Both the position numbers and the translations under genes were made by a program. This document shows, in pieces, positions 32,201 through 46,381 of a DNA stretch of 64,000 nt. Every line of letters begins with the position of its first letter. Position 1 is the stretch's first letter. Origin of the DNA: Candidatus Eiseniibacteriota bacterium (GTDB lineage: Bacteria > Eisenbacteria > RBG-16-71-46); assembly GCA_963717935.1 (NCBI GenBank), contig CAVQXP010000004.1, positions 1,152,001 through 1,216,000 of the forward strand. The letters run 5' to 3'. Under the pieces are notes generated by a model. That model made no database searches. It had not been told where the DNA came from and saw only the letters and a list, made by a program, of their open reading frames with translations.

Positions 32201-32685
32201 ACGCGAACCTGAGCTGGGTGACCGACGTCTACAATCCGCACCCGGTGCGCTCGCTCGGCTACAACCTGGGCCTGAACCTGGACAGCGGCGGGCTCAGGCG
32301 CACCTCGCCCGACCTGCCGGTCGAGCAGCAGCCGGCGGCGGGCTCTGGCGAGAACTGGTCGCTGGGCTTCGCCTACTCCTACTCGGGCGGCTATGCGTGG
32401 GACACGGAGTGGTCCAGCACGAAGACCGCGAACCTGGTGAGCCGCTACCAGTTGAGCCCGGCCTGGGCGTTCGAGTACGCCGCCTCCTTCGATCTCACGC
32501 GCCACAGCGTGCAGACCCAGCGTTTCGTGCTGTCGCGCGACCTGCATTGCTGGCAGGCGGTCTTCACCCGGCTGTTCGTGGCGGGCGGCGAGGCCGAGTA
32601 CTACTTCCGCATCGGCGTGAAGGACCAGAAGGAGATCTACCTGGAGCGCGGCACCCGCGTGGGCAGCCTCGGCGGGATCCAGTAG
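29200..32685 (+). CDS. lptD: LPS-assembly protein LptD with a long OstA/LptA-like N-terminal region
   Basis: Signal peptide; repeated beta-jellyroll segments; YTTC...PHY, R-SGFL-P, GYYWA, C-terminal RDLHCW. Confidence 0.8.
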
Positions 32686-32758
32686 GACTTCCGCGCGCGA
32701 TCCCGCAGCCGAGCGGCGCATCCAACCATCAACGGCCGCGCCCTCACCTGTGGGAACC

Positions 32759-35121
<2,363 letters not shown>

Positions 35122-35125
<4 letters not shown>

Positions 35126-35283
35126 CGGGTCTCGGCCGCCTGATCGTGACCGTGCTCGGCCTGGGCCTGATCGTGGCCGTGAACCTGTACTTCTTCGCCC
35201 GGCCGCGGGACGGACGCCGGAAGCCGGTGATGCAGCCGGAGCGTGCCGGGGAGACCGGGGCGGGGCCCGCCGACCAGGCTTGA
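35122..35283 (+). CDS. Small single-TM protein coupled to copA
   Basis: ATGA overlap with the copA stop; [19 protein letters not shown]. Confidence 0.55.
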
Positions 35284-35332
35284 CCGGGCCGGGACAAGAA
35301 CCTCCTCCCCCCGCGCCAGCATCCAAGCAGCC

Positions 35333-35773
35333 ATGCGCCCGCCCGCCTTCCTCCTTCGTCGCGCCCTGACCGCGATCCTGGCGGTCAGCCCGCTCGTCGC
35401 GAGCGCCGACCTCTGCACCGTCGGCGCGCTCACGGGACGCGCGGAGCTGGCGTGCTCGATGGAGCCCGGCGCGCCCGCCTGCCGGGTGGCGCCTGCGCCG
35501 AAATGTTCGCACTGCGCTCCGGCAGCCCCGGCGCGCGAGACCGCGCGTTCGCACGGTCCGACCTGTTGCGACTTGCGCCCGCAGGCCGCGGCCGTGGCCG
35601 GGCAGCCGATGCTCGCCGCGCCGCTGCCGATCGCGCATCCCGCGGTGGTTTCGGCGGTCGTGGCCCCCGGCGTCGTCACGGCGTCAGCGGTCCGTGTTGC
35701 GCCCGACGACGGCCGCGCTCCTCCGGGCGACGTCCCGGCCCCCCTCTCTCCCCGCGCTCCTCCGCTCGCCTAG
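35333..35773 (+). CDS. Cys-rich exported leader peptide ending in RAPP (CruR/CutF/DUF2946-like arrest peptide)
   Basis: Signal-like N-terminus, 7 Cys including CSHC and CC, C-terminus GRAPPGDVPAPLSPRAPPLA-stop, upstream of cusCBA. Confidence 0.75.
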   Translation: MRPPAFLLRRALTAILAVSPLVASADLCTVGALTGRAELACSMEPGAPACRVAPAPKCSHCAPAAPARETARSHGPTCCDLRPQAAAVAGQPMLAAPLPIAHPAVVSAVVAPGVVTASAVRVAPDDGRAPPGDVPAPLSPRAPPLA

Positions 35774-35905
35774 TCTCCAGCCGTCCCCCGGGTCTCGACC
35801 TTCATCGGGCCCGGCCCGCGCGCATCCTGCGCTCGGGGTCCCTGCGGCCTTCGCGTGCCCTGCAGAGCGCAGCGCACCGCGGGGCCCGGCGAGAGGAGTG
35901 ACGTC

Positions 35906-37204
35906 ATGAGCCCACGTACGGCGCTGCTCGCCGTGCTGCTCGTCCTGGCCGGCGTCCGGCCGGCGCTGGCGCTCGAGCTCGAGAGCGCGCTGCGCGAGGA
36001 CGGGCGGATCGCGCCGTCTCCGGACGAGCTCGCCGCGCTGGCGCTCCAGCGCGCTCCCTCCCTGGCGGCGCTCGCGGCGCGCGTCCAGGAGGCGCGGGAG
36101 ATGGTGCGGCCGGCCGGGGCGCTTCCCAACCCGATGGTCGAGCTCATGATCCAGGACATCGGCTTCCCCAGGTGGACCGTCGGCGAAGAGGGCATGTCGA
36201 TGATCGGCCCGCAGGTCACCCAGGGCATCCCCTTCCCGGGCAAGCGCGGCGCCCGCCGGCGGGCCGCGCAGGCAGACGTCACCGTGAAGGCGAGCGAGCT
36301 CGAGCTGCTCCGGAGGGAGGTGGCCCTCGACATCCGGAGGCTCTGCGCCCGGCTCTATGCGCTCGACCAGGAACAGCAGGCGCTTTCCTCCGGACACGAG
36401 CTGCTCGAGATGCTGGCGGCCACGGTGCGGGAACGTTACAGCGCCGGCGTGGCGGAGCAGGAAGCCGCGATCAAGGCGCAACTCGCGGTATCGCGGCTGG
36501 ACGAGCGGCTGGACGACCTGGTCGCGGAACGCAGGGCCCTGGTGGCCTCCGTGAACCGGTACCTGGACCAGCCGGGCGACGCACCGCTCGGACGCGTGAC
36601 GACATTGCCCGAGCCAGGCGCGCCGCCCACGCCCTGGGAGGCCGTCGTCATGGAGAACTCCCCCGAGATCGTCCTGCGCCGGGCCGAAGTGCAGGCTGCG
36701 GAGCGCAGACTCCGGGTGGCCCGGCTGGAGCTCAGGCCCGACCTCCTCGTCGGCGCGGGTCTTGGCTTCCGGGGCGGCAAGGACCCGGCCGTCACGCTCC
36801 GGCTGGGCATGGACCTGCCCCTCTGGAGCGCGCAGCGGCAGATGCCCATGTTCCGCGCGGCTGGACAGGACCTCGAGGCGTCACGTCAGGTGCTGCGCGA
36901 CGCCGAAGCCCGGGCGCGGGCCGAGACGGCGCGTCTGGAGGCGGACTGGCGGAGAGCGGCCAGACAGGTGACGCGCTACGCGCAGGCCATCGTGCCCCGG
37001 AGCAGCCTGGCGCTCGATGCGGCGCGCTCCAGCTACCTCGTGGGCCGGGGTGACTTCTCCGCGGTCATCGAGGACTTCAACCTGTGGCTCGAGGCCCGGA
37101 CCGGGCTGGCCCGGCGCGAAGCCGAGCGCTTCACGACGTGGGCCGAGCTGCAGGCCATCATCGGCTCGAGCGGTCCCGGAGACGACGGCAGGAGGGGACG
37201 ATGA
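35906..37204 (+). CDS. TolC-family outer-membrane efflux protein (CusC/CzcC-like)
   Basis: GAGAGGAG RBS, signal peptide, LPNP, PFPGKR, two OEP-like halves. Confidence 0.85.
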   Translation: MSPRTALLAVLLVLAGVRPALALELESALREDGRIAPSPDELAALALQRAPSLAALAARVQEAREMVRPAGALPNPMVELMIQDIGFPRWTVGEEGMSMIGPQVTQGIPFPGKRGARRRAAQADVTVKASELELLRREVALDIRRLCARLYALDQEQQALSSGHELLEMLAATVRERYSAGVAEQEAAIKAQLAVSRLDERLDDLVAERRALVASVNRYLDQPGDAPLGRVTTLPEPGAPPTPWEAVVMENSPEIVLRRAEVQAAERRLRVARLELRPDLLVGAGLGFRGGKDPAVTLRLGMDLPLWSAQRQMPMFRAAGQDLEASRQVLRDAEARARAETARLEADWRRAARQVTRYAQAIVPRSSLALDAARSSYLVGRGDFSAVIEDFNLWLEARTGLARREAERFTTWAELQAIIGSSGPGDDGRRGR

Positions 37205-38679
37205 TCCATCTCGAACGAAGGACCCGGCGACGGAGGTTGTCGCTCGTCCCTCTCGCGGTCGGGCTCCTGGCGATCGGGCTCCTGGCGATCGGGACGCTGG
37301 CGGCCGGCTGCGGCAGGAACAGCGGCAGCGGCAAGACCGGCAGCCAGCAGCAGCAGCAGTACCACTGCCCCATGCATCCGACCTACGTGACCGACCGGCC
37401 GGGAGACTGCCCCATCTGCGGGATGAAGCTCGTGCCGATCGGACCGAAGGAGCCGAAGGTCCCTGCCGGGCCGTCCGCCCCGGCGGGCGCTGCGACCGCG
37501 GCCGCCGGGGCGCGCCGGATCCTCCACTACCGGAACCCGATGGACCCGTCGGTCACGTCGCCGGTGCCGATGAAGGACCCGATGGGGATGGACTACGTGC
37601 CGGTCTACTCGGACGAGGTGCCCGCGGGCGCCGGCGTGGAAGGCCATGCCCCGGTGGAAGTGAGTCCCGAGGAGTCGGGACTCGCCGGCCTTCGGACCAC
37701 CGTGGCCCGAAGGGGAACGCTGGCTCGCGCCATCCGCACGGTCGGTGAGGTCAAGGCCGACGAGACGCGGGTCAGCAAGGTGCACTCCAAGATCTCGGGG
37801 TGGGCCGAGCGGCTGTTCGTCAGCTTCACCGGCCAGGCCGTCCGCAAGGGCCAGCCGCTGCTGAGCATCTACTCCCCCGAACTGCTGGCGACCCAGGAGG
37901 AGTTCCTGCGCGCGCGCGAATCGGCGGCGCGGTTCGCGCAGAACGACATGCCCGAGGTGCGGCGTGGCGGCGCGGATCTGCTGGAGGCGGCGCGACGGCG
38001 GCTCCTGCTGTTCGACGTGCCGCAGAGCTTCATCGACACGCTGGAGAGGACGGGACAGCCGCAACGCGCGGTCACGCTCGAGGCCCCCGCCTCGGGCTTC
38101 GTCACCGCGAAGGACGTCTTCGCGGGCGCCCGGATCGAACCCGGTGTCACGCTGTTCACGATCACCGACCTGTCGAAGGTCTGGGTCGAGGGTGAGGTCT
38201 ACGAATACGAGGCCCCGCTCGTCCGGCTCGGACAGAAGGCCCGGGTCACGCTCGCCTACGACCCGTCGAGGGCATACACGGGACGGATCCGTTACATCTA
38301 CCCGTACCTGAACACGGACACCCGCACGCTTCGGGTCCGCTTCGAGTTCGACAACCCCGGCCTGGCCCTGAAGCCCGGCATGTACGTCGACGTCGAGCTC
38401 GACGCGCAGGTGGTCCAGGGCGTCCTGGTCCCCGAGGCGTCCATCCTGGACACCGGCCCCCGGCAGATCGTCTACGTGATGACGGGCGAGGGGCGCTACG
38501 AGCCGCGCGAGGTGACCATCGGGCTCCGGAGCGGCGGCACGGCGCAGGTCCTCTCGGGGGTGAAGGCGGGCGAGGTGGTCGTGGACCGGGCCAACTTCCT
38601 GCTCGATTCGGAGTCCCGCCTCCGGGCCGCCATCGGGCGCTCGGCCGTCGCCGACACCGCCGGAAGTGGCGCGCGATGA
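37201..38679 (+). CDS. cusB: RND periplasmic adaptor, CusB-like, with heavy-metal-binding domains
   Basis: YHCPMHP...CPICGMKLV, YRNPMDP...KDPMGMDY, V-KGQPL-IYSPEL, LKPGM, FLLDSES. Confidence 0.88.
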   Translation: MIHLERRTRRRRLSLVPLAVGLLAIGLLAIGTLAAGCGRNSGSGKTGSQQQQQYHCPMHPTYVTDRPGDCPICGMKLVPIGPKEPKVPAGPSAPAGAATAAAGARRILHYRNPMDPSVTSPVPMKDPMGMDYVPVYSDEVPAGAGVEGHAPVEVSPEESGLAGLRTTVARRGTLARAIRTVGEVKADETRVSKVHSKISGWAERLFVSFTGQAVRKGQPLLSIYSPELLATQEEFLRARESAARFAQNDMPEVRRGGADLLEAARRRLLLFDVPQSFIDTLERTGQPQRAVTLEAPASGFVTAKDVFAGARIEPGVTLFTITDLSKVWVEGEVYEYEAPLVRLGQKARVTLAYDPSRAYTGRIRYIYPYLNTDTRTLRVRFEFDNPGLALKPGMYVDVELDAQVVQGVLVPEASILDTGPRQIVYVMTGEGRYEPREVTIGLRSGGTAQVLSGVKAGEVVVDRANFLLDSESRLRAAIGRSAVADTAGSGAR

Positions 38680-41600
38680 TCCAGAAGATCATCGAGTTCT
38701 CGGCCCGGAACCGCCTGCTCGTGCTGCTGGGCGTGGCGGCGCTCTGCGTCTTCGCGTTCTACACCCTGAAGCAGATCCGGCTCGACGCGCTGCCCGATCT
38801 CTCCGACACCCAGGTCATCGTCTACTCGCGCTGGGACAGGTCCCCCGACATCATCGAGGATCAGGTCACCTATCCCGTCGTCACGGCGCTGCTGGGGGCG
38901 CCTCGCGTCAAGGCGGTTCGCGGCTTCTCGGACTTCGGCTACTCCTTCGTCTACGTGATCTTCCAGGATGGCACCGATCTCTACTGGGCGCGCTCCCGGG
39001 TTCTGGAGTACCTGTCCAAGATCCAGGCGCGGCTCCCGGAGGGCGTGCACACCGAACTCGGGCCGGACGCGACGGGGGTGGGCTGGGTCTTCCAGTACGC
39101 CCTGGTCGACCGTTCCGGCAAGCACTCGCTCGACCAGCTCCGCTCGTACCAGGACTGGACGCTCCGCTACGCGCTCCAGATGGTGCCCGGTGTCGCCGAG
39201 GTGGCCTCCATCGGCGGCTACGTCAAGCAGTATCAGATCACCGTGGACCCCGACCGGCTCGCCGCGTTCGGCCTGCCACTCTCCACCGTGGTCGAGGCCA
39301 TCCGGAACTCCAACAGCGAGGTCGGCGGCCGGCTCATCGAGTGGAGCGGCACGGAGTACATGGTGCGGGGCCGCGGCTACTCGAAGAGCGTCGAGGACTT
39401 CGGAAGCATCGTCGTGAAGACCGGCGAGGGTGGCGTGCCGGTGCTCCTGAGGGACGTGGCGCGGGTCGGCCTGGGTCCCGAGATCCGCCGCGGCGTGTCC
39501 GACCTGGATGGGATGGGCGATCACGTCGGCGGCATCGTGGTCATGCGCCACGGTGAGAACGCCCTGAACGTGATCAAGCGGGTCAAGGAGAGGCTCCACG
39601 ATCTCGGGCCGTCGCTTCCCGCAGGGGTGGAGATCGTCACCACCTACGACCGGGCGGACCTCGTCACCCGGGCCATCGGGACGCTGAAGCACGAGCTGTC
39701 GATCGAGATGATCATCGTCTCGCTGGTCATCCTGCTCTTTCTCTGGCACATCCCGTCGGCCATCGTGCCCATCCTGACCATCCCCATCGCGGTGCTCCTG
39801 TCCTTCATCCCGCTCTTCTACTTCGGCGTCTCCGTCAACATCATGTCCCTGGCCGGCATCGCGATCTCGATCGGCGTGCTGGTGGACGGGGCCATCGTCG
39901 AGGTGGAGAACGCCTACAACAAGCTCCATCTCTGGAACGCCGGCGGCCGGAAGGGCGACTTCCACGCCGTCCGGCTCGAGGCGCTCAAGGAGGTGGGGCC
40001 GGCGGTCTTCTTCTCGCTGCTGGTCGTCGCGGTGTCGTTCCTTCCCATCTTCGCCCTGGTGGACCAGGAAGGGCGGCTGTTCAAGCCGCTGGCCTACTCG
40101 AAGAACCTGACCATGGCGCTGGCGGCGTTCCTGGCCATCACCCTCGATCCGGCCATGCGGATGATGTTCACCCGCATGGACCCGTTCGTCTTCAAGCCCC
40201 GATTCCTGGCCCGGCTCGCCAGCCACGCCTTCGTGGGCACCTACCATTCCGAGGAGAAGCACCCCATCAGTCGCGCCATCTCCAGGGTGTACGACCCCGC
40301 CTGCCGCTGGGTCCTGCGGCGCCCCCGGACGACCATCCTGATCGCCGTCGCGATCGTCGCCGTGAGCATCCCCGCCTATTTCAGGCTCGGCTCGGAGTTC
40401 ATGCCCCCGCTCAACGAAGGCACGATCCTCTACATGCCGACGACCCTGCCCGGGATCGCGGTGGCCGAGGCCCAGGCGCTCCTGCAGACCCAGGACCGGG
40501 TCCTCAAGTCGTTCCCCGAGGTGGAACGGGTCTTCGGCAAGGCGGGCCGCGCCGAGACCTCCACCGACCCCGCGCCCTTCTCGATGATGGAGACGACGGT
40601 GATCCTGAAGCCGCCGCAGGAGTGGCGTGGCAAGGAACGCTGGTATTCCTCCTGGGCGCCCGGCTGGCTCAGGGGATTCCTCCGCCCCATCTGGCCCGAC
40701 CGGATCTCGTGGGATGAGCTGGTCGAGGAGATGGACCGGAAGCTGCAGATCCCGGGCGTGACCAACGCCTGGACCATGCCGATCAAGGCCCGCACCGACA
40801 TGCTGACGACCGGGGTCCGCACCCCGATCGGGATCAAGATCTTCGGCTCGGATCTCGGGGAGATCGAGAAGCTGGGTGGCCAGCTCGAGGGCCTGATGCG
40901 GCAGGTGCCCGGCACCCGCAGCGTCTACGCCGAGCGGGTGACCGGCGGCTACTTCCTCGACTTCGAGCCCCGGCGGGACCGGCTCGCCCGCTACGGGCTC
41001 ACCATCGCGGATGTCCAGAGGGTGCTCATGTCGGCCGTGGGCGGCGAGAACGTGACCACCACCATCGAGGGCCGTGAACGCTACCCGGTCAACGTGCGCT
41101 ACCCCCGGGAGCTCCGGGACAACGTGGACCGTCTGCGAAGGGTCCTGGTGAAGACCCCCGCGGGACCGCAGGTGCCGCTGGCCCAGCTCGCCGACATCGA
41201 GCTGGTCAGCGGGCCGGCGATGATCCGGGACGAGAACGGCTTCATGGCGGGCTACGTCTACGTGGACATGACCGGCCGGGACATCGGCGGCTACGTGAAG
41301 GAGGCCAGGAAGCTCGTCCGGGAGAAGCTGACTCTGCCCCCCGGCTATGCGCTGCAGTGGAGCGGCCAGTACGAGAACATGATCCGCGTGAGCCGACGGC
41401 TCAAGGTCGTCGTGCCCATCACGCTGGTGCTGATCTTCGTACTGCTGTTCGCCAACACCCGCTCGGCGTTCAAGACGCTGGTCGTGATGCTGGCCGTGCC
41501 GTTCTCCGCCGTGGGCGCCATCTGGCTCTTCCACTTCCTGGGCTACAACGTGTCCATCGCGGCGTGGGTGGGGATGATCGCGCTCCTGGGCCTGGATGCG

Positions 41601-41930
41601 GAGACGGGCGTGTTCATGCTGCTCTTCCTGGACCTCTCCTACGACGAGTACCGCAGGAAAGGGCTGCTGCGGACCCTGGCCGATCTGGACGAGGCCATCC
41701 TGCACGGGGCGGTCAAGCGGGCGCGACCCAAGATGATGACCGTCTTCGCCGCCTTCATGGGCCTGCTCCCCATCATGTGGTCGACGTCGGCCGGGGCGGA
41801 CGTGATGAAGCGGATCGCCGCGCCCATGATCGGCGGCCTGGTCACGTCGTTCCTGCTCGAGCTGCTGGTCTACCCGGCGATCTACAAGCTCTGGAAGCTG
41901 AGGACGGAACTGAAGGGGCTCACCCCATGA
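38676..41930 (+). CDS. cusA: CusA/CzcA heavy-metal RND efflux transporter
   Basis: DALPDLSD-QV, ELGPDATGVGW, MSLAGIAI-IG-VDGAIV-VEN, EFMPPL-EG, MKRIAAPM-GG. Confidence 0.93.
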   Translation: MIQKIIEFSARNRLLVLLGVAALCVFAFYTLKQIRLDALPDLSDTQVIVYSRWDRSPDIIEDQVTYPVVTALLGAPRVKAVRGFSDFGYSFVYVIFQDGTDLYWARSRVLEYLSKIQARLPEGVHTELGPDATGVGWVFQYALVDRSGKHSLDQLRSYQDWTLRYALQMVPGVAEVASIGGYVKQYQITVDPDRLAAFGLPLSTVVEAIRNSNSEVGGRLIEWSGTEYMVRGRGYSKSVEDFGSIVVKTGEGGVPVLLRDVARVGLGPEIRRGVSDLDGMGDHVGGIVVMRHGENALNVIKRVKERLHDLGPSLPAGVEIVTTYDRADLVTRAIGTLKHELSIEMIIVSLVILLFLWHIPSAIVPILTIPIAVLLSFIPLFYFGVSVNIMSLAGIAISIGVLVDGAIVEVENAYNKLHLWNAGGRKGDFHAVRLEALKEVGPAVFFSLLVVAVSFLPIFALVDQEGRLFKPLAYSKNLTMALAAFLAITLDPAMRMMFTRMDPFVFKPRFLARLASHAFVGTYHSEEKHPISRAISRVYDPACRWVLRRPRTTILIAVAIVAVSIPAYFRLGSEFMPPLNEGTILYMPTTLPGIAVAEAQALLQTQDRVLKSFPEVERVFGKAGRAETSTDPAPFSMMETTVILKPPQEWRGKERWYSSWAPGWLRGFLRPIWPDRISWDELVEEMDRKLQIPGVTNAWTMPIKARTDMLTTGVRTPIGIKIFGSDLGEIEKLGGQLEGLMRQVPGTRSVYAERVTGGYFLDFEPRRDRLARYGLTIADVQRVLMSAVGGENVTTTIEGRERYPVNVRYPRELRDNVDRLRRVLVKTPAGPQVPLAQLADIELVSGPAMIRDENGFMAGYVYVDMTGRDIGGYVKEARKLVREKLTLPPGYALQWSGQYENMIRVSRRLKVVVPITLVLIFVLLFANTRSAFKTLVVMLAVPFSAVGAIWLFHFLGYNVSIAAWVGMIALLGLDAETGVFMLLFLDLSYDEYRRKGLLRTLADLDEAILHGAVKRARPKMMTVFAAFMGLLPIMWSTSAGADVMKRIAAPMIGGLVTSFLLELLVYPAIYKLWKLRTELKGLTP

Positions 41931-41946
41931 TCCGAGGAGGGAAATC

Positions 41947-42291
41947 ATGAAGATGAACACGAGGACCTTGGCGACGGCCGCGTTGCTGATGCTGGCGGTG
42001 GGTTGCTCGAGCGCGGGTGCGGCCCGCGAACAGCGTGTGAAGATCGCGGTGACCGAGAAGGGCTTCGAGCCGGCCTCCGTGACGGTGCAGTCGGGCCGGC
42101 CCGTCACGCTGCTCGTCACGCGCCGGACCGATCACACCTGCGCGACCGGGCTCGTGCTCAAGACGCACGGCATCGACCAGAAGCTGCCACTGGGGAAGAC
42201 GGTGGCCATCCGCTTCACGCCCGAGCGGCCCGGCGAGCTGACCTATGCCTGCCCGATGGACATGTACCACGGGAAGATCGTGGTGCGGTGA
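41947..42291 (+). CDS. Exported cupredoxin-domain protein (possible lipoprotein)
   Basis: GAGGAGG RBS, LAVGC, GFEP-V-V-G-PV-L...C...YACPMDMYHG. Confidence 0.8.
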   Translation: MKMNTRTLATAALLMLAVGCSSAGAAREQRVKIAVTEKGFEPASVTVQSGRPVTLLVTRRTDHTCATGLVLKTHGIDQKLPLGKTVAIRFTPERPGELTYACPMDMYHGKIVVR

Positions 42292-44804: not shown

Positions 44805-44834
44805 TTGACGCCTGCGCGCGGCGGACCGTAGACT
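44805..44834 (+). promoter_or_regulatory. sigma70-type promoter for the selenoprotein gene
   Basis: TTGACG-N18-TAGACT. Confidence 0.45.
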
Positions 44835-44906
44835 CAACATGAGTGATGTCTTCCGCTACGCCGCTGCAATGAATCCCACTTTGCCCGCGCCAGGAGACCC
44901 CGTCGC

Positions 44907-46324
44907 ATGAAGACCCTGCTGCCCCGGATTCTCGCCACCGCGCTGCTCGCGGCCATCACCTGGATGCTGCTGGCCGGCGCCAGCGCGCCCCGGGGGAATC
45001 CCCTCGAACCGGACAAGCTCGTCATCCTGTCCACGAACGACGTGAAGGGCAAGACCGATCCCTGTGGCTGACACACCCCCAAGGGGGGCTCGCCCGGCGG
45101 GCGGGCTTTGCGGACAGCATCAAGGCGGGCTATGGCCAGGTCGTGTGGGTGGACGCGGGCGGTTTCTTCCCCGAGGACGACCTGCACAAGGACGTCTCCT
45201 GGTTCCTGATGGACGCCATGCAGGTGATGGGCCTCGACGCGGTGGGGATGAGCGAGAAGGAACTGCGCTTCGGGCTGAGCTACCTGAAGGCGCAGCAGAA
45301 GCGCACGCAGCTGCCGATGGTGTGCGCCAACCTCTACGAGAAGAAGACCTCGAAGCTGCTGCTGGCGCCCTATGTGCTGAAGCAGGTGGGCACGGTCAAG
45401 GTGGGCATCTTCGGGGTCATGAGCAACGTCGTGGACCTGGGCCCGGCGCGGGACTCGCTGCGGGTCGAGGAGCCCTCGGCCGCGGCCAAGCGCACGGTCG
45501 CGGAGCTGCGCAAGAAGGGCGCGACGGTGGTGGTGCTGCTCTCGCAACTGGGCAAGGTCGAAGGCGAGGATCTGGTGACGGCGGTGGACGGCATCGACGC
45601 GGTGATCCTGGGCCACAGCGTGCCGCTGTTGCAGAAGGGGCGCCTGATCAAGACCACGGTGGCCTGCTACGGCGGGGAGCAGGGCCAGTACATCGGGCGC
45701 ACGCTGCTGACGCTCGATCCCCAGCGGAAGGTGACGAGCGGGGAGAACGAGACCTTCATTCTGGGGCCCGATATCGCGGACAAGAAGGAGATGGCTGCGC
45801 TGGTGAAGGGCTTCAACGACAGCTTCAACGAGAAGCTGCAGAAGCTGCAGAAGGAGAGGGCCGCGAAGGACGCCGAGAGGGCGGCGCAGGGCGTGCCCGA
45901 GCACTACCTGGGAGGCGAGATCTGCGCGCGCTGTCACGCAGCCGAGACGGCGCAGTGGAAGACCACGAAACACGCGCAAGCCTGGGAGACGCTGGTGGCG
46001 GCGAAGCAGGATACCGTCGCCCGCTGCATCGGCTGCCACGTGGTGGGCTTCCAGCAGCCCGGCGGGTTCAAGGACCAGGCGAGCAGCCGCAACCTGGCGG
46101 GCGTGCAGTGCGAGAGCTGCCACGGCATGGGCTCCATGCACGAGGCCTTCAACACCAAGCCGCGCGGGGTCACCGAGCGGGCCTGTCGTGTCTGCCACAC
46201 GAAGGAGATGAGCCCCGGGTTCGACTACGCCCTGTACCAGCCCCACATCAACCACAAGGGCACGGGGACGAAGCAACCGCTGCCCGGCTCGCCCATGAGG
46301 AACCTGTGGCCGACAGGCAAGTAG
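44907..46324 (+). CDS. Exported UshA-like (CxU) selenoprotein fused to a four-heme cytochrome c; in-frame TGA at 45069 and one G missing in the run at 45083-45088
   Basis: AGGAG RBS, signal peptide, LVILSTNDVKG-TDPCG-TGA-HTPKGGLARR, continuing into VDAG...; heme motifs CARCH, CIGCH, CESCH, CRVCH. Confidence 0.8.
45088..45106 (+). promoter_or_regulatory. Candidate bacterial SECIS hairpin
   Basis: gctcgccc-ggc-gggcgggc; G-first apical loop about 24 nt after the TGA. Confidence 0.55.
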
Positions 46325-46340
46325 CGCCGGATCGGATGAA

Positions 46341-46381
46341 CGTCGCGGAGCGGGCCCTGCGGGCCCGCTCCGCGACGCTTT
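46341..46381 (+). terminator. Intrinsic terminator (17-bp perfect stem)
   Basis: cgtcgcggagcgggccc-tgc-gggcccgctccgcgacg-cttt. Confidence 0.7.

Follow-up and report, generated by a model that had tools for sequence, protein, structure and literature searches.

The locus lies within a stretch of 64,000 nucleotides from a Candidatus Eiseniibacteriota genome (the window); all positions below refer to its forward strand. A listing of open reading frames in the window returns only two entries at this locus, 44907–45071 (54 aa) and 45143–46324 (393 aa). Read directly, the sequence tells of a single, larger gene. The first frame opens at an ATG at 44907 with the N-terminus MKTLLPRILATALLAAITWMLLAGASAP, judged by eye to resemble a signal peptide, runs as far as STNDVKGKTDPCG and there meets a TGA (45069–45071) at codon 55, beyond which it continues as HTPKGG. 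From 45089 the sequence continues as LARRAGFADSIKAGYGQVVWVDAGGFF in a second frame, displaced by one base, which remains open until the stop at 46322–46324. With one base added the gene would have an intact length of 472 aa, the TGA being codon 55. A version of the gene in a single frame with one TGA is present in six of seven congeneric genomes and in numerous further relatives, which places the arrangement far above chance. The start, the ribosome-binding site, the TGA at codon 55, the change of frame and four CxxCH motifs had all been put forward in a first-pass annotation made from the sequence, and every coordinate holds.

The ribosome-binding site (AGGAG, 44892–44896) stands 10 nt before the ATG, and its GGAGA is invariant across eight aligned sequences. 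Further upstream is a promoter-like site, TTGACG-18 nt-TAGACT (44805–44834), known from a consensus scan match only; in the upstream 16-mers of several congeners, TAGACT likewise stands a short way ahead of the ATG. The first coding piece (44907–45088) is defined by translation, by a match to positions 7–44 of the family model NF041198 and by alignment to orthologues. It comprises a putative signal peptide (approximately codons 1–24), a beta-1 strand carrying a relic of phosphoesterase motif I (STNDVKG), the P-C-G-U motif and HTPKGG. Within it are the codons TGT GGC TGA (45063–45071) for Cys53-Gly54-Sec55, the proposed active site, recognized by conservation of the TGA; it ends in a tract of six G (45083–45088) where, from alignment to relatives and from public contigs, the frame changes. 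Immediately downstream is a SECIS-like hairpin (45089–45105), identified by folding and covariation. The remainder of a degenerate 5′-nucleotidase-type metallophosphoesterase domain, together with a linker helix, occupies 45089–45898 (profile and Foldseek matches), and a cytochrome c554-like tetraheme domain extends from 45899 to 46324 (PF13435, 1bvb and NF041198 positions 345–519). A perfect 13-bp GC-rich inverted repeat (46345–46373), 21 nt after the stop, is a possible terminator: a terminator scan passed over it because it is not followed by a T run.

Profile alignment places a 5′-nucleotidase fold over residues ∼36–310, the Thermus enzyme 2z1a matching with an E value of 4.8e-27. The same structure is the top Foldseek match for an AF2 model of the intact orthologue from a congener, G005 (E 8.6e-23, TM ∼0.5, ∼309 columns); the top matches of this model are all 5′-nucleotidases, and its pLDDT exceeds 90 across the N domain. 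The motifs of the fold survive in the window as relics – VDAGGFF (45149), MSEKE (45248), LSQLG (45539) and LGHS (45608) – in which the residues that bind metal are replaced: DxH by DVK, GD by GG, GNHE by SEKE, SH by SQ and GHxH by GHS. The alignment to 2z1a bears out the ligand losses at DxH, GD, GNHE and SH described in the first-pass annotation, and the same or similar losses occur across the family (SEKE or GERE for GNHE). The window protein thus lacks the dinuclear metal ligand set of an active metallophosphoesterase. The 5′-nucleotidase C-terminal domain is likewise absent from the six Pfam families that match the C-terminal piece at E values up to 0.1; alignments to 5′-nucleotidases in the PDB stop near query residue 291–314, after which the heme domain follows. 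In comparison with the UshA/CD73 5′-nucleotidases (2z1a, 1ush, 4h2i), with which it has in common the fold and a GG(L/V)ARR segment, the protein has its nucleotide-binding domain exchanged for a heme domain and a Cys-Gly-Sec added. A more distant bearer of the fold is the thiosulfohydrolase SoxB (TIGR04486, 2wdc), a dimanganese enzyme that acts in periplasmic sulfur chemistry. Matches to it are weak (57.7 bits, E 5.7e-11), and scores of 55.8–68.3 bits against a TIGR04486 cut-off of 550 place the protein outside the SoxB family: the window protein is without the metal ligands, and SoxB is without hemes.

The C-terminal part contains the four CxxCH motifs that had been predicted for it – CARCH (45923), CIGCH (46025), CESCH (46109) and CRVCH (46184) – and scores 60.2 bits on PF13435, for which the gathering score is 20.8. 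Cytochrome c554 of Nitrosomonas (PF13435, 1bvb), which also carries four CxxCH, is matched with an E value of 3.3e-19 by profile alignment; here, in contrast to that cytochrome, the domain is not a free electron carrier but is fused to an enzyme-like fold. NF043010, for which the cut-off is 400, gives 51 bits. Genes for cytochrome c assembly are present in the genome.

Both halves of the protein are encompassed by a single family model, and the gene is very probably a member of NCBIfam NF041198 ('UshA_like_PCGU', UshA-like (seleno)protein), encoding one exported selenoprotein of ∼472 residues whose frame is intact in the organism. The N-terminal piece scores 24.9 bits over model positions 7–44 and the C-terminal piece 240.5 bits (45089–46321 alone, 235.9 bits). 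Because of the frame break a single score is unobtainable, and the two pieces sum to ∼261–265 bits against the curated cut-off of 275. The intact G005 orthologue, which is 81% identical to the main piece in the window, passes with 289.6 bits; that of a second congener, G004, falls just under the cut-off with 272.5 bits, and one form with Cys in place of Sec (Cys form) reaches 265.2 bits. Common to the family are a signal peptide, P-C-G-U/C, a degenerate 5′-nucleotidase N-domain and a C-terminus with four CxxCH; the heme part lies inside the model (residues 229–397 of the C-terminal piece correspond to positions 345–519). The clade to which the window belongs is a borderline fit to the model, with positions about 274–343 unmatched, and the window copy departs from its relatives by the one-base frame break in the assembly. 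Named relatives in the clade are labelled Candidatus Eisenbacteria.

The family has been in print for some time. 'COG0737, UshA-like, CxU' was listed by Zhang and Gladyshev in 2008 (PMC2398784) and again in reviews of 2022 (PMC9312934) and 2026 (PMC13188914), in accord with the earlier statement that UshA-like proteins with CxU are a described selenoprotein family with Cys homologues. The listings in these three sources give the name of the family, the motif and an example protein, and make no mention of the heme domain or of a function. The novelty implied by the first-pass annotation does not stand: the fusion to hemes is already part of the NF041198 model and the family has been listed since 2008. 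The gene belongs to a family already catalogued; its recovery soundly corrects the annotation but does not introduce a novel type of protein. A second selenoprotein family drawn from the same fold, NF049981 (UshA-like (seleno)protein family 2, CxxU), is distinct: its cut-off is 140 bits and the window protein reaches 20.6, and the model, of 262 positions, has a CxxU motif and is without a heme part.

Evidence that the TGA is translated comes from several directions. The window reads DPCG-TGA-H at 45057–45074, and PCG-TGA-H is present at 21 of 22 loci in relatives. In an alignment of 34 family members PCG[U/C] is invariant; the TGA is kept in 34 distinct relatives, and in the Cys forms the codon is TGC or TGT. 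PCGC is found in all 16 full-length database homologues fetched, as expected of a homologue search across the TGA, and in six further diverse relatives. The sel genes, named at the outset as a check, are present: profile searches of the genome return selA (526.6 bits), selB (308.1 bits) and selD (339.4 bits), each over its cut-off, and ARAGORN identifies a tRNA-SeC adjoining selD with a second copy elsewhere in the genome.

The hairpin downstream of the TGA has a stem of 45089–45095 paired with 45099–45105 and a GGC loop. It falls within the codons for L-A-R-R-A-G, which among relatives encode Leu-Ala-Arg-Arg-Ala-Ser/Gly, and in this assembly begins 17 nt after the UGA; in relatives the spacing is 18 or 21 nt. 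Complete pairing at all seven stem positions is seen in 31 of the 34 distinct sequences of Sec type and in none of the 18 of Cys type; related sequences in these counts are not independent of one another, and the average distance is greater for those of Cys type. In the alignment 96.1% of cells are paired, and 18 cells carry changes on both sides. Compensatory changes are evident at pair 27–39 (GC 16, CG 13, UG 2) and at pair 30–36 (CG 29, AU 2, UA 1). The score was equalled in none of 500 shuffles, and in controls slid along the alignment 17–49% of cells were paired. These comparisons show a predicted hairpin that covaries in the Sec forms and is absent from the Cys forms. Because PCG-TGA is kept, homologues carry PCGC, the hairpin covaries, and selA, selB, selD and tRNA-Sec are all present, the TGA at codon 55 is, as judged from sequence, a selenocysteine codon, and the hidden selenoprotein gene first proposed for this locus is upheld.

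The assembly has six G at 45083–45088. All seven aligned relatives have one extra base right after the tract (GGT, GGA or GGC), and an extra G, placed at 45080/45082, is present in three public contigs that bridge the site (X2 record 6, X3 record 10 and X4 record 19), each with less than 10% mismatch to the window; bridging was counted by a rule of 31 letters. These contigs differ from the window at 5–6% of positions and hence are from other strains. A fourth contig, of 125 letters and also from X4, has seven G and is otherwise identical to the window; its depth is 2.5, and with 29 letters to the left of the tract it is 2 below the bridging rule. The missing base proposed at the tract is thus found in every aligned relative and in the three contigs of other strains. 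X1, the run in which the stretch is most fully represented, lacks cover over the tract and so says nothing on the frameshift either way.

Changes of frame are common elsewhere in this genome. In a control based on the open frames of G004 and tblastn, 19 of 96 orthologous genes contained a total of 33 frame switches, 22 of them with clean junctions, of which one is near a run of five or more. The selenocysteine genes are affected also: selD has one base too many shortly 3′ of its own Sec codon (by comparison with one congener, G004), and in eight of the nine relatives with a match, the ninth being G026, it is in one frame from profile position 1 onward; selB changes frame toward its C-terminus. 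We consider selD to be broken in the same manner as the gene described here, and selB probably so, and read both changes as likely assembly error. Lengths of G/C runs are not clearly different from those at the loci of relatives. A codon-phase test did return more frame changes at longer runs before gene ends were filtered, but error specific to homopolymers was rejected, since the excess was gone once near-stop sites were removed (9.0–14.6 against 12.1 per 1000 sites). This test is crude and misfiled the G-tract site because of the Sec TGA, and the tblastn control was used in its place. Given that there is no homopolymer excess, and that one of 22 junctions is near a long run, the errors appear to be general indels; it follows that a 'missing G' is just one description of the lost base. 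The frame break is most likely an assembly error and, because the one-base change most likely stems from an indel-rich assembly, the organism itself probably has an unbroken gene.

Two other readings of the locus need to be weighed. Were the TGA a plain stop, 44907–45071 would amount to a short ORF of its own, if to anything, and the GTG at 45143 would be the start codon of the cytochrome gene. This is how the databases call the family: 104 of the best 120 matches are 312–423 aa in length and start past the TGA, and the protein called from this very contig is of 391 aa. The same 391-aa entry bears out the expectation that gene callers truncate the gene. A plain stop is contradicted by conservation of the upstream part as protein (it matches NF041198 positions 7–44), by Cys forms that read through the position uninterrupted in one frame, and by hairpin covariation limited to the TGA forms. 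Moreover, a c-type cytochrome requires a signal peptide, which is encoded in the upstream part, and a start at 45143 would cut into a conserved fold. We regard it as scarcely credible. The second reading accepts the selenocysteine codon and takes the one-base deletion to be real, the gene being a true pseudogene, perhaps part of a decaying selenocysteine trait. The break is present in the assembly as given, selD and selB change frame too and may be read as decay of that trait, and X1, the run that best represents the stretch, provides no cover at the site. Yet 19 of 96 unrelated control genes change frame as well, so that in this assembly frame breaks are the rule and not a signal; every contig covering the site has the extra base, including the one otherwise identical to the window; and the remainder of the gene is open and 81–86% identical to intact congeners. 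A true pseudogene is accordingly improbable, and the identity of the gene as given above, taken jointly with an artefactual frameshift, is in our estimation highly likely.

The family is abundant, with 784 database clusters at E ≤ 1e-10 among 8000 scored candidates, and is spread across many phyla; a search of the ESM Atlas returned the same uncharacterised family only. Gene neighbours were considered as a clue to function and dropped, there being nothing common across phyla. In the window the upstream neighbours are a zincin/TPR gene in divergent orientation and one resembling GalT, with genes for copper efflux beyond them; downstream are DUF4097 and bactofilin-like genes. At other loci DUF1573 is adjacent in three instances and DUF4159 in two, the remaining neighbours being unrelated; among 70 scanned of 149 usable flanking ORFs (150 listed) no neighbour is conserved across phyla. 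Literature searches, the scope of which lay outside subscription journals, returned neither selenocysteine, multiheme and nucleotidase together nor Eisenbacteria together with selenoprotein.

What the protein might do can be sketched from its parts. The signal peptide would export it, and in the periplasm it would receive four c-type hemes. Cys53-Gly-Sec55, in a loop beside what would be the abandoned dinuclear metal site of the 5′-nucleotidase fold, would act as a selenylsulfide/selenol redox centre, exchanging electrons with the periplasmic electron pool via the c554-like heme domain. The substrate, as a guess, would be either a small compound, chalcogen or oxyanion in nature, or else a persulfide or disulfide carried on a protein. 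The loss of the metal ligands, the invariance of PCG[U/C] and the heme domain lead us to infer this heme-fed redox mechanism, of the kind suggested in the first-pass annotation, and we give it about an even chance. The AF2 model of the G005 orthologue, folded without hemes, is least confident at the PCGU loop (pLDDT ∼66) and in the heme domain (∼55–75).

The same gene, with the same selenocysteine, might instead employ Cys-Gly-Sec as a ligand and not as a free redox pair, either to a new metal in the old pocket or through an axial bond to a heme iron. Cys is an axial ligand of heme iron in TsdA or SoxAX. The motif adjoins the former metal site, 8–10 residues after the motif I aspartate, and is directly followed by a nearly invariant His56. 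Moreover, to serve four hemes there are just three conserved His (H356, H412, H450) that do not belong to a CxxCH motif, so that one heme may lack a distal His ligand. Weighing against a ligand role, the fold is predicted in a model made without hemes or metals, His56 is replaced in several Cys forms (PCGCS, PCGCT, PCGCF, PCGCA), and CxC/CxU is the listed motif of several selenoprotein families, with ferredoxin-thioredoxin reductase among the CxU entries in selenoprotein reviews. We consider a ligand role unlikely, if less so than a pseudogene, and keep the redox pair as our working proposal.

For the source genome the immediate outcome is a correction: two ORF fragments should probably be merged into a single gene for an exported selenoprotein, and the 391-aa entry called from this contig treated as a truncation. 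There is also a warning about the assembly, in that about one in five control genes changes frame, as do selD and apparently selB; because frame changes are so common, apparent pseudogenes in this genome are not to be trusted without reads. Beyond the genome, it is possible, though we put it forward tentatively and think it rather less probable than the redox mechanism itself, that the whole family may constitute a new class of periplasmic enzyme, in which an emptied 5′-nucleotidase pocket has been rebuilt around Cys-Gly-Sec/Cys and is fed by four hemes. If so, the centre would act as a redox pair of the selenylsulfide type or, in a bolder version, would serve one heme as a selenolate/thiolate partner or ligand, and the substrate that the enzyme oxidises or reduces could be, for example, polysulfide, thiosulfate/tetrathionate, selenite or arsenate. 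Cys-form members occur in cultured bacteria, namely Blastopirellula marina DSM 3645, Haloferula luteola YC6886 and Aestuariirhabdus sp. LZHN29; these are open to study at the bench, and make of the family a general lead that extends beyond this window.

The gene lies on the forward strand at 44907–46324, with an AGGAG ribosome-binding sequence (44892–44896) 10 nt 5′ of its ATG (44907). Codon 55 is a TGA (45069–45071), preceded by MKTLLPRILATALLAAITWMLLAGASAPRGNPLEPDKLVILSTNDVKGKTDPCG and followed by HTPKGG; the frame breaks at 45088/45089, after a run of six G (45083–45088), and resumes, shifted by one base, as an open frame that begins LARRAGFADSIKAGYGQVVWVDAGGFF, ends at the stop codon 46322–46324 and carries four CxxCH motifs: CARCH (45923), CIGCH (46025), CESCH (46109) and CRVCH (46184). 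The ORF listing gives just two fragments, 44907–45071 (54 aa) and 45143–46324 (393 aa), and the database protein from this contig (P0015) is a 391-aa truncation. The first-pass annotation had proposed a hidden periplasmic selenoprotein, a degenerate UshA-like CxU domain fused to a four-heme cytochrome c: this identity is right, and the positions it gave for gene, TGA and G run are exact.

The UshA-like family is present in all 41 related genomes, in most as a ~500-aa open frame with exactly one TGA. Such a frame occurs in six of seven same-genus genomes, the seventh (G006), whose contigs are fragmentary, having a match that contains no TGA; PCG-TGA-H is read at 21 of 22 loci in relatives, and the remaining locus is a Cys form. 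Among the best 120 database hits, 104 are 312–423 aa long, cut by gene callers at the TGA, and all 16 full-length entries (467–486 aa) have PCGC, the alignment of Cys homologues with the TGA that the first-pass annotation had asked for. Six more distant members, including those of Blastopirellula marina DSM 3645 and Haloferula luteola, combine PCGC with four CxxCH motifs. The machinery it had named as a further check is also present: profile searches of the genome itself return selA (526.6 bits), selB (308.1) and selD (339.4), and ARAGORN calls a tRNA-SeC adjoining selD (contig C4:1910457–1910554). For a second ARAGORN tRNA-SeC, of different sequence, at C2:66885–66982, there are three possible explanations: an additional gene, a miscall or a contaminant (the genome's stated contamination is 2.56%).

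In several relatives, two to four UshA-like paralogues stand in tandem, TGA and TGA-less copies mixed (G027:C39:7397–12917, G031:C175:13953–16223, G012:C29:28744–31573 and G035:C183:3277–5536), which suggests repeated Sec/Cys switching after duplication. There is also a much longer paralogue in the window's own genome, with the same degenerate nucleotidase-like domain (C4:73963–74679, within a 1233-aa open frame), and many relatives have equivalents of ~1200–1300 aa; in most relatives the match of these long paralogues begins at profile position 48, and they therefore lack the PCGU part.

Folding places a hairpin (7-bp stem, GGC loop) at 45089–45105 (forward strand), built from Leu-Ala-Arg-Arg-Ala-Ser/Gly codons. 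Its start lies 3′ of the TGA by 18 or 21 nt in relatives, against 17 nt in the window's own assembly. Among distinct sequences fitting the search pattern all seven positions pair in 31 of 34 Sec-type and 0 of 18 Cys-type sequences (mean pairs 6.74 vs 4.22), the sequences being kin and the Cys forms on average more distant; the 34 include one locus (L033) from an unpublished genome (G026), without which full pairing stands at 30/33. Across the Sec-type alignment 96.1% of hairpin cells are paired. Where two synonymous third positions pair with each other, 16 rows have GC, 13 CG and 2 UG; a second covarying pair is CG in 29, AU in 2 and UA in 1. The observed score was reached by none of 500 shuffles, and slid controls were 17–49% paired.

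The family is catalogued as NCBIfam NF041198 (UshA_like_PCGU, ‘UshA-like (seleno)protein’; 519 positions, cut-off 275 bits), which matches both pieces of the gene: the part before the frame change at positions 7–44 (24.9 bits), and the part after it with 240.5 bits and a best stretch at positions 345–519. Since this stretch is the heme part, the multiheme fusion already belongs to the curated family, and the architecture is not new. Against the cut-off, congener G005's intact orthologue, with 81% identity to the main piece of the window gene, reaches 289.6 bits, congener G004's 272.5 and one Cys form 265.2: the window's clade is at the edge of the model. The family entered print in 2008 as ‘COG0737, UshA-like, CxU’, when GOS data gave 76 Sec sequences for it and 92 Cys homologues (PMC2398784), and is tabulated in two reviews (PMC9312934, PMC13188914), one with the accession NF041198; the review table entries and the passages on the family in the 2008 paper mention neither its function nor hemes. 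No paper that brings together selenocysteine, multiheme and nucleotidase, or Eisenbacteria and selenoprotein, turned up in literature searches. The novelty implied by the first-pass annotation fails, with the heme fusion already inside the model and the family long in print.

A profile built from 34 members of the family matches 5′-nucleotidases over residues ~36–310 (2z1a, E 4.8e-27; CD73; UshA) and, in the heme part, cytochrome c554 (1bvb, E 3.3e-19); its match to SoxB is weak (E 5.7e-11). In the alignment to 5′-nucleotidases DxH is replaced by DVK, GD by GG, GNHE by SEKE (GERE or GDRD in relatives) and SH by SQ, as the first reading of the sequence had it, and GHxH is GHS or GRN in the family. 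GGLARR is common to true nucleotidases and so not family-specific; unlike 5′-nucleotidases, the window protein has no nucleotide-binding C-domain (Pfam scan and PDB alignments). Modelled with AlphaFold2 and without hemes, the G005 orthologue has a mean pLDDT of 81.8 (N domain >90, PCGU loop ~66, heme part 55–75), and the Foldseek hits of the model are 5′-nucleotidases throughout.

The analysis establishes Sec recoding signals and machinery, lost metal ligands, an invariant PCG[U/C] and a c554-like domain with four CxxCH motifs. The protein would be exported by its signal peptide and its hemes attached in the periplasm (cytochrome c assembly genes are found in the genome); Cys53 and Sec55 may form a selenylsulfide–selenol centre in the emptied nucleotidase pocket, exchanging electrons with the heme chain. 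This redox role has roughly an even chance of being correct. A variant in which the invariant PCG[U/C] would be a ligand of metal or heme is rather unlikely.

The gene looks monocistronic, with a promoter-like consensus match at 44805–44834 (forward strand), a 13-bp GC hairpin 3′ of the stop and a divergent zincin/TPR gene upstream. Farther upstream are a GalT-like gene and a forward-strand copper/heavy-metal efflux block (32621–42291: a CopA-type P-type ATPase with HMA domain, OEP, an HlyD_D23/CusB-type fusion protein bearing a heavy-metal-binding domain, an AcrB-family (RND) protein and a small cupredoxin-like protein); downstream are DUF4097 and bactofilin-like genes. No conserved neighbour, the efflux block included, was found across 17 loci from other phyla (70 of 149 usable flanking ORFs scanned, 150 listed). 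DUF4159 adjoins the UshA-like gene in two of these loci and DUF1573 in three, the DUF1573/HYDIN-type Ig-like neighbours lying at L064:4864–5913, L098:4880–5902 and L116:7248–8282 (labelled Scalindua, Planctomycetota and Poribacteria).

At the frame break, all seven relatives in a DNA alignment (six congeners and G010) have CCAAGGGGGG, then T, A or C, then CTCGCC, and the window lacks exactly that one base. Three contigs from public sequencing runs that bridge the G run (X2 record 6, X3 record 10 and X4 record 18) have one extra base, at 45080/45082, bearing out the first-pass reading in so far as a base is missing at the G run. In X4 record 19 a seventh G is the sole difference from the window over 124 letters (depth 2.5; with 29 letters on the left side of the run, it is two under the bridging rule); run X1, which covers most of the stretch, does not cover the G run.

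As a control, 130 long codon-biased open frames from 400 kb of the complete congener G004 were compared with the window's genome by tblastn. Orthologues were found for 96 (47,184 aligned residues), of which 19 contain frame jumps, 33 in all and often clustered (for example in C2:327992–335545, C4:925141–927485 and C1:53347–54188); runs of five or more lie near only one of the 22 clean junctions, so that the switches are not tied to homopolymers. Indel errors are therefore frequent in this assembly and of a general kind, at roughly one in every 4 kb of coding sequence. The genome's selD, itself a selenoprotein gene (VACSG-TGA-ASKLGPADL; C4 ~1909250–1910210, locus L017 1380–1560), has one base too many ~75 nt after the Sec codon relative to the one aligned congener (G004); it is in one frame from profile position 1 in eight of nine relatives with a selD match, the ninth, unpublished G026, being left out. 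In selB (C4:50300–52158, reverse strand) the C-terminal ~100 residues are in another frame than the 584-aa main frame, probably through a further assembly indel. Because relatives and bridging contigs have the extra base, control genes are rich in indels and selD and selB are similarly broken, the break at 45088/45089 is very probably an assembly artefact, and a true pseudogene, possibly alongside decay of the Sec trait, is improbable. The window gene belongs to a catalogued selenoprotein family and is ordinary among its members; it is viewed here through an error-rich assembly, and the apparent pseudogenes of this genome are in need of read support.
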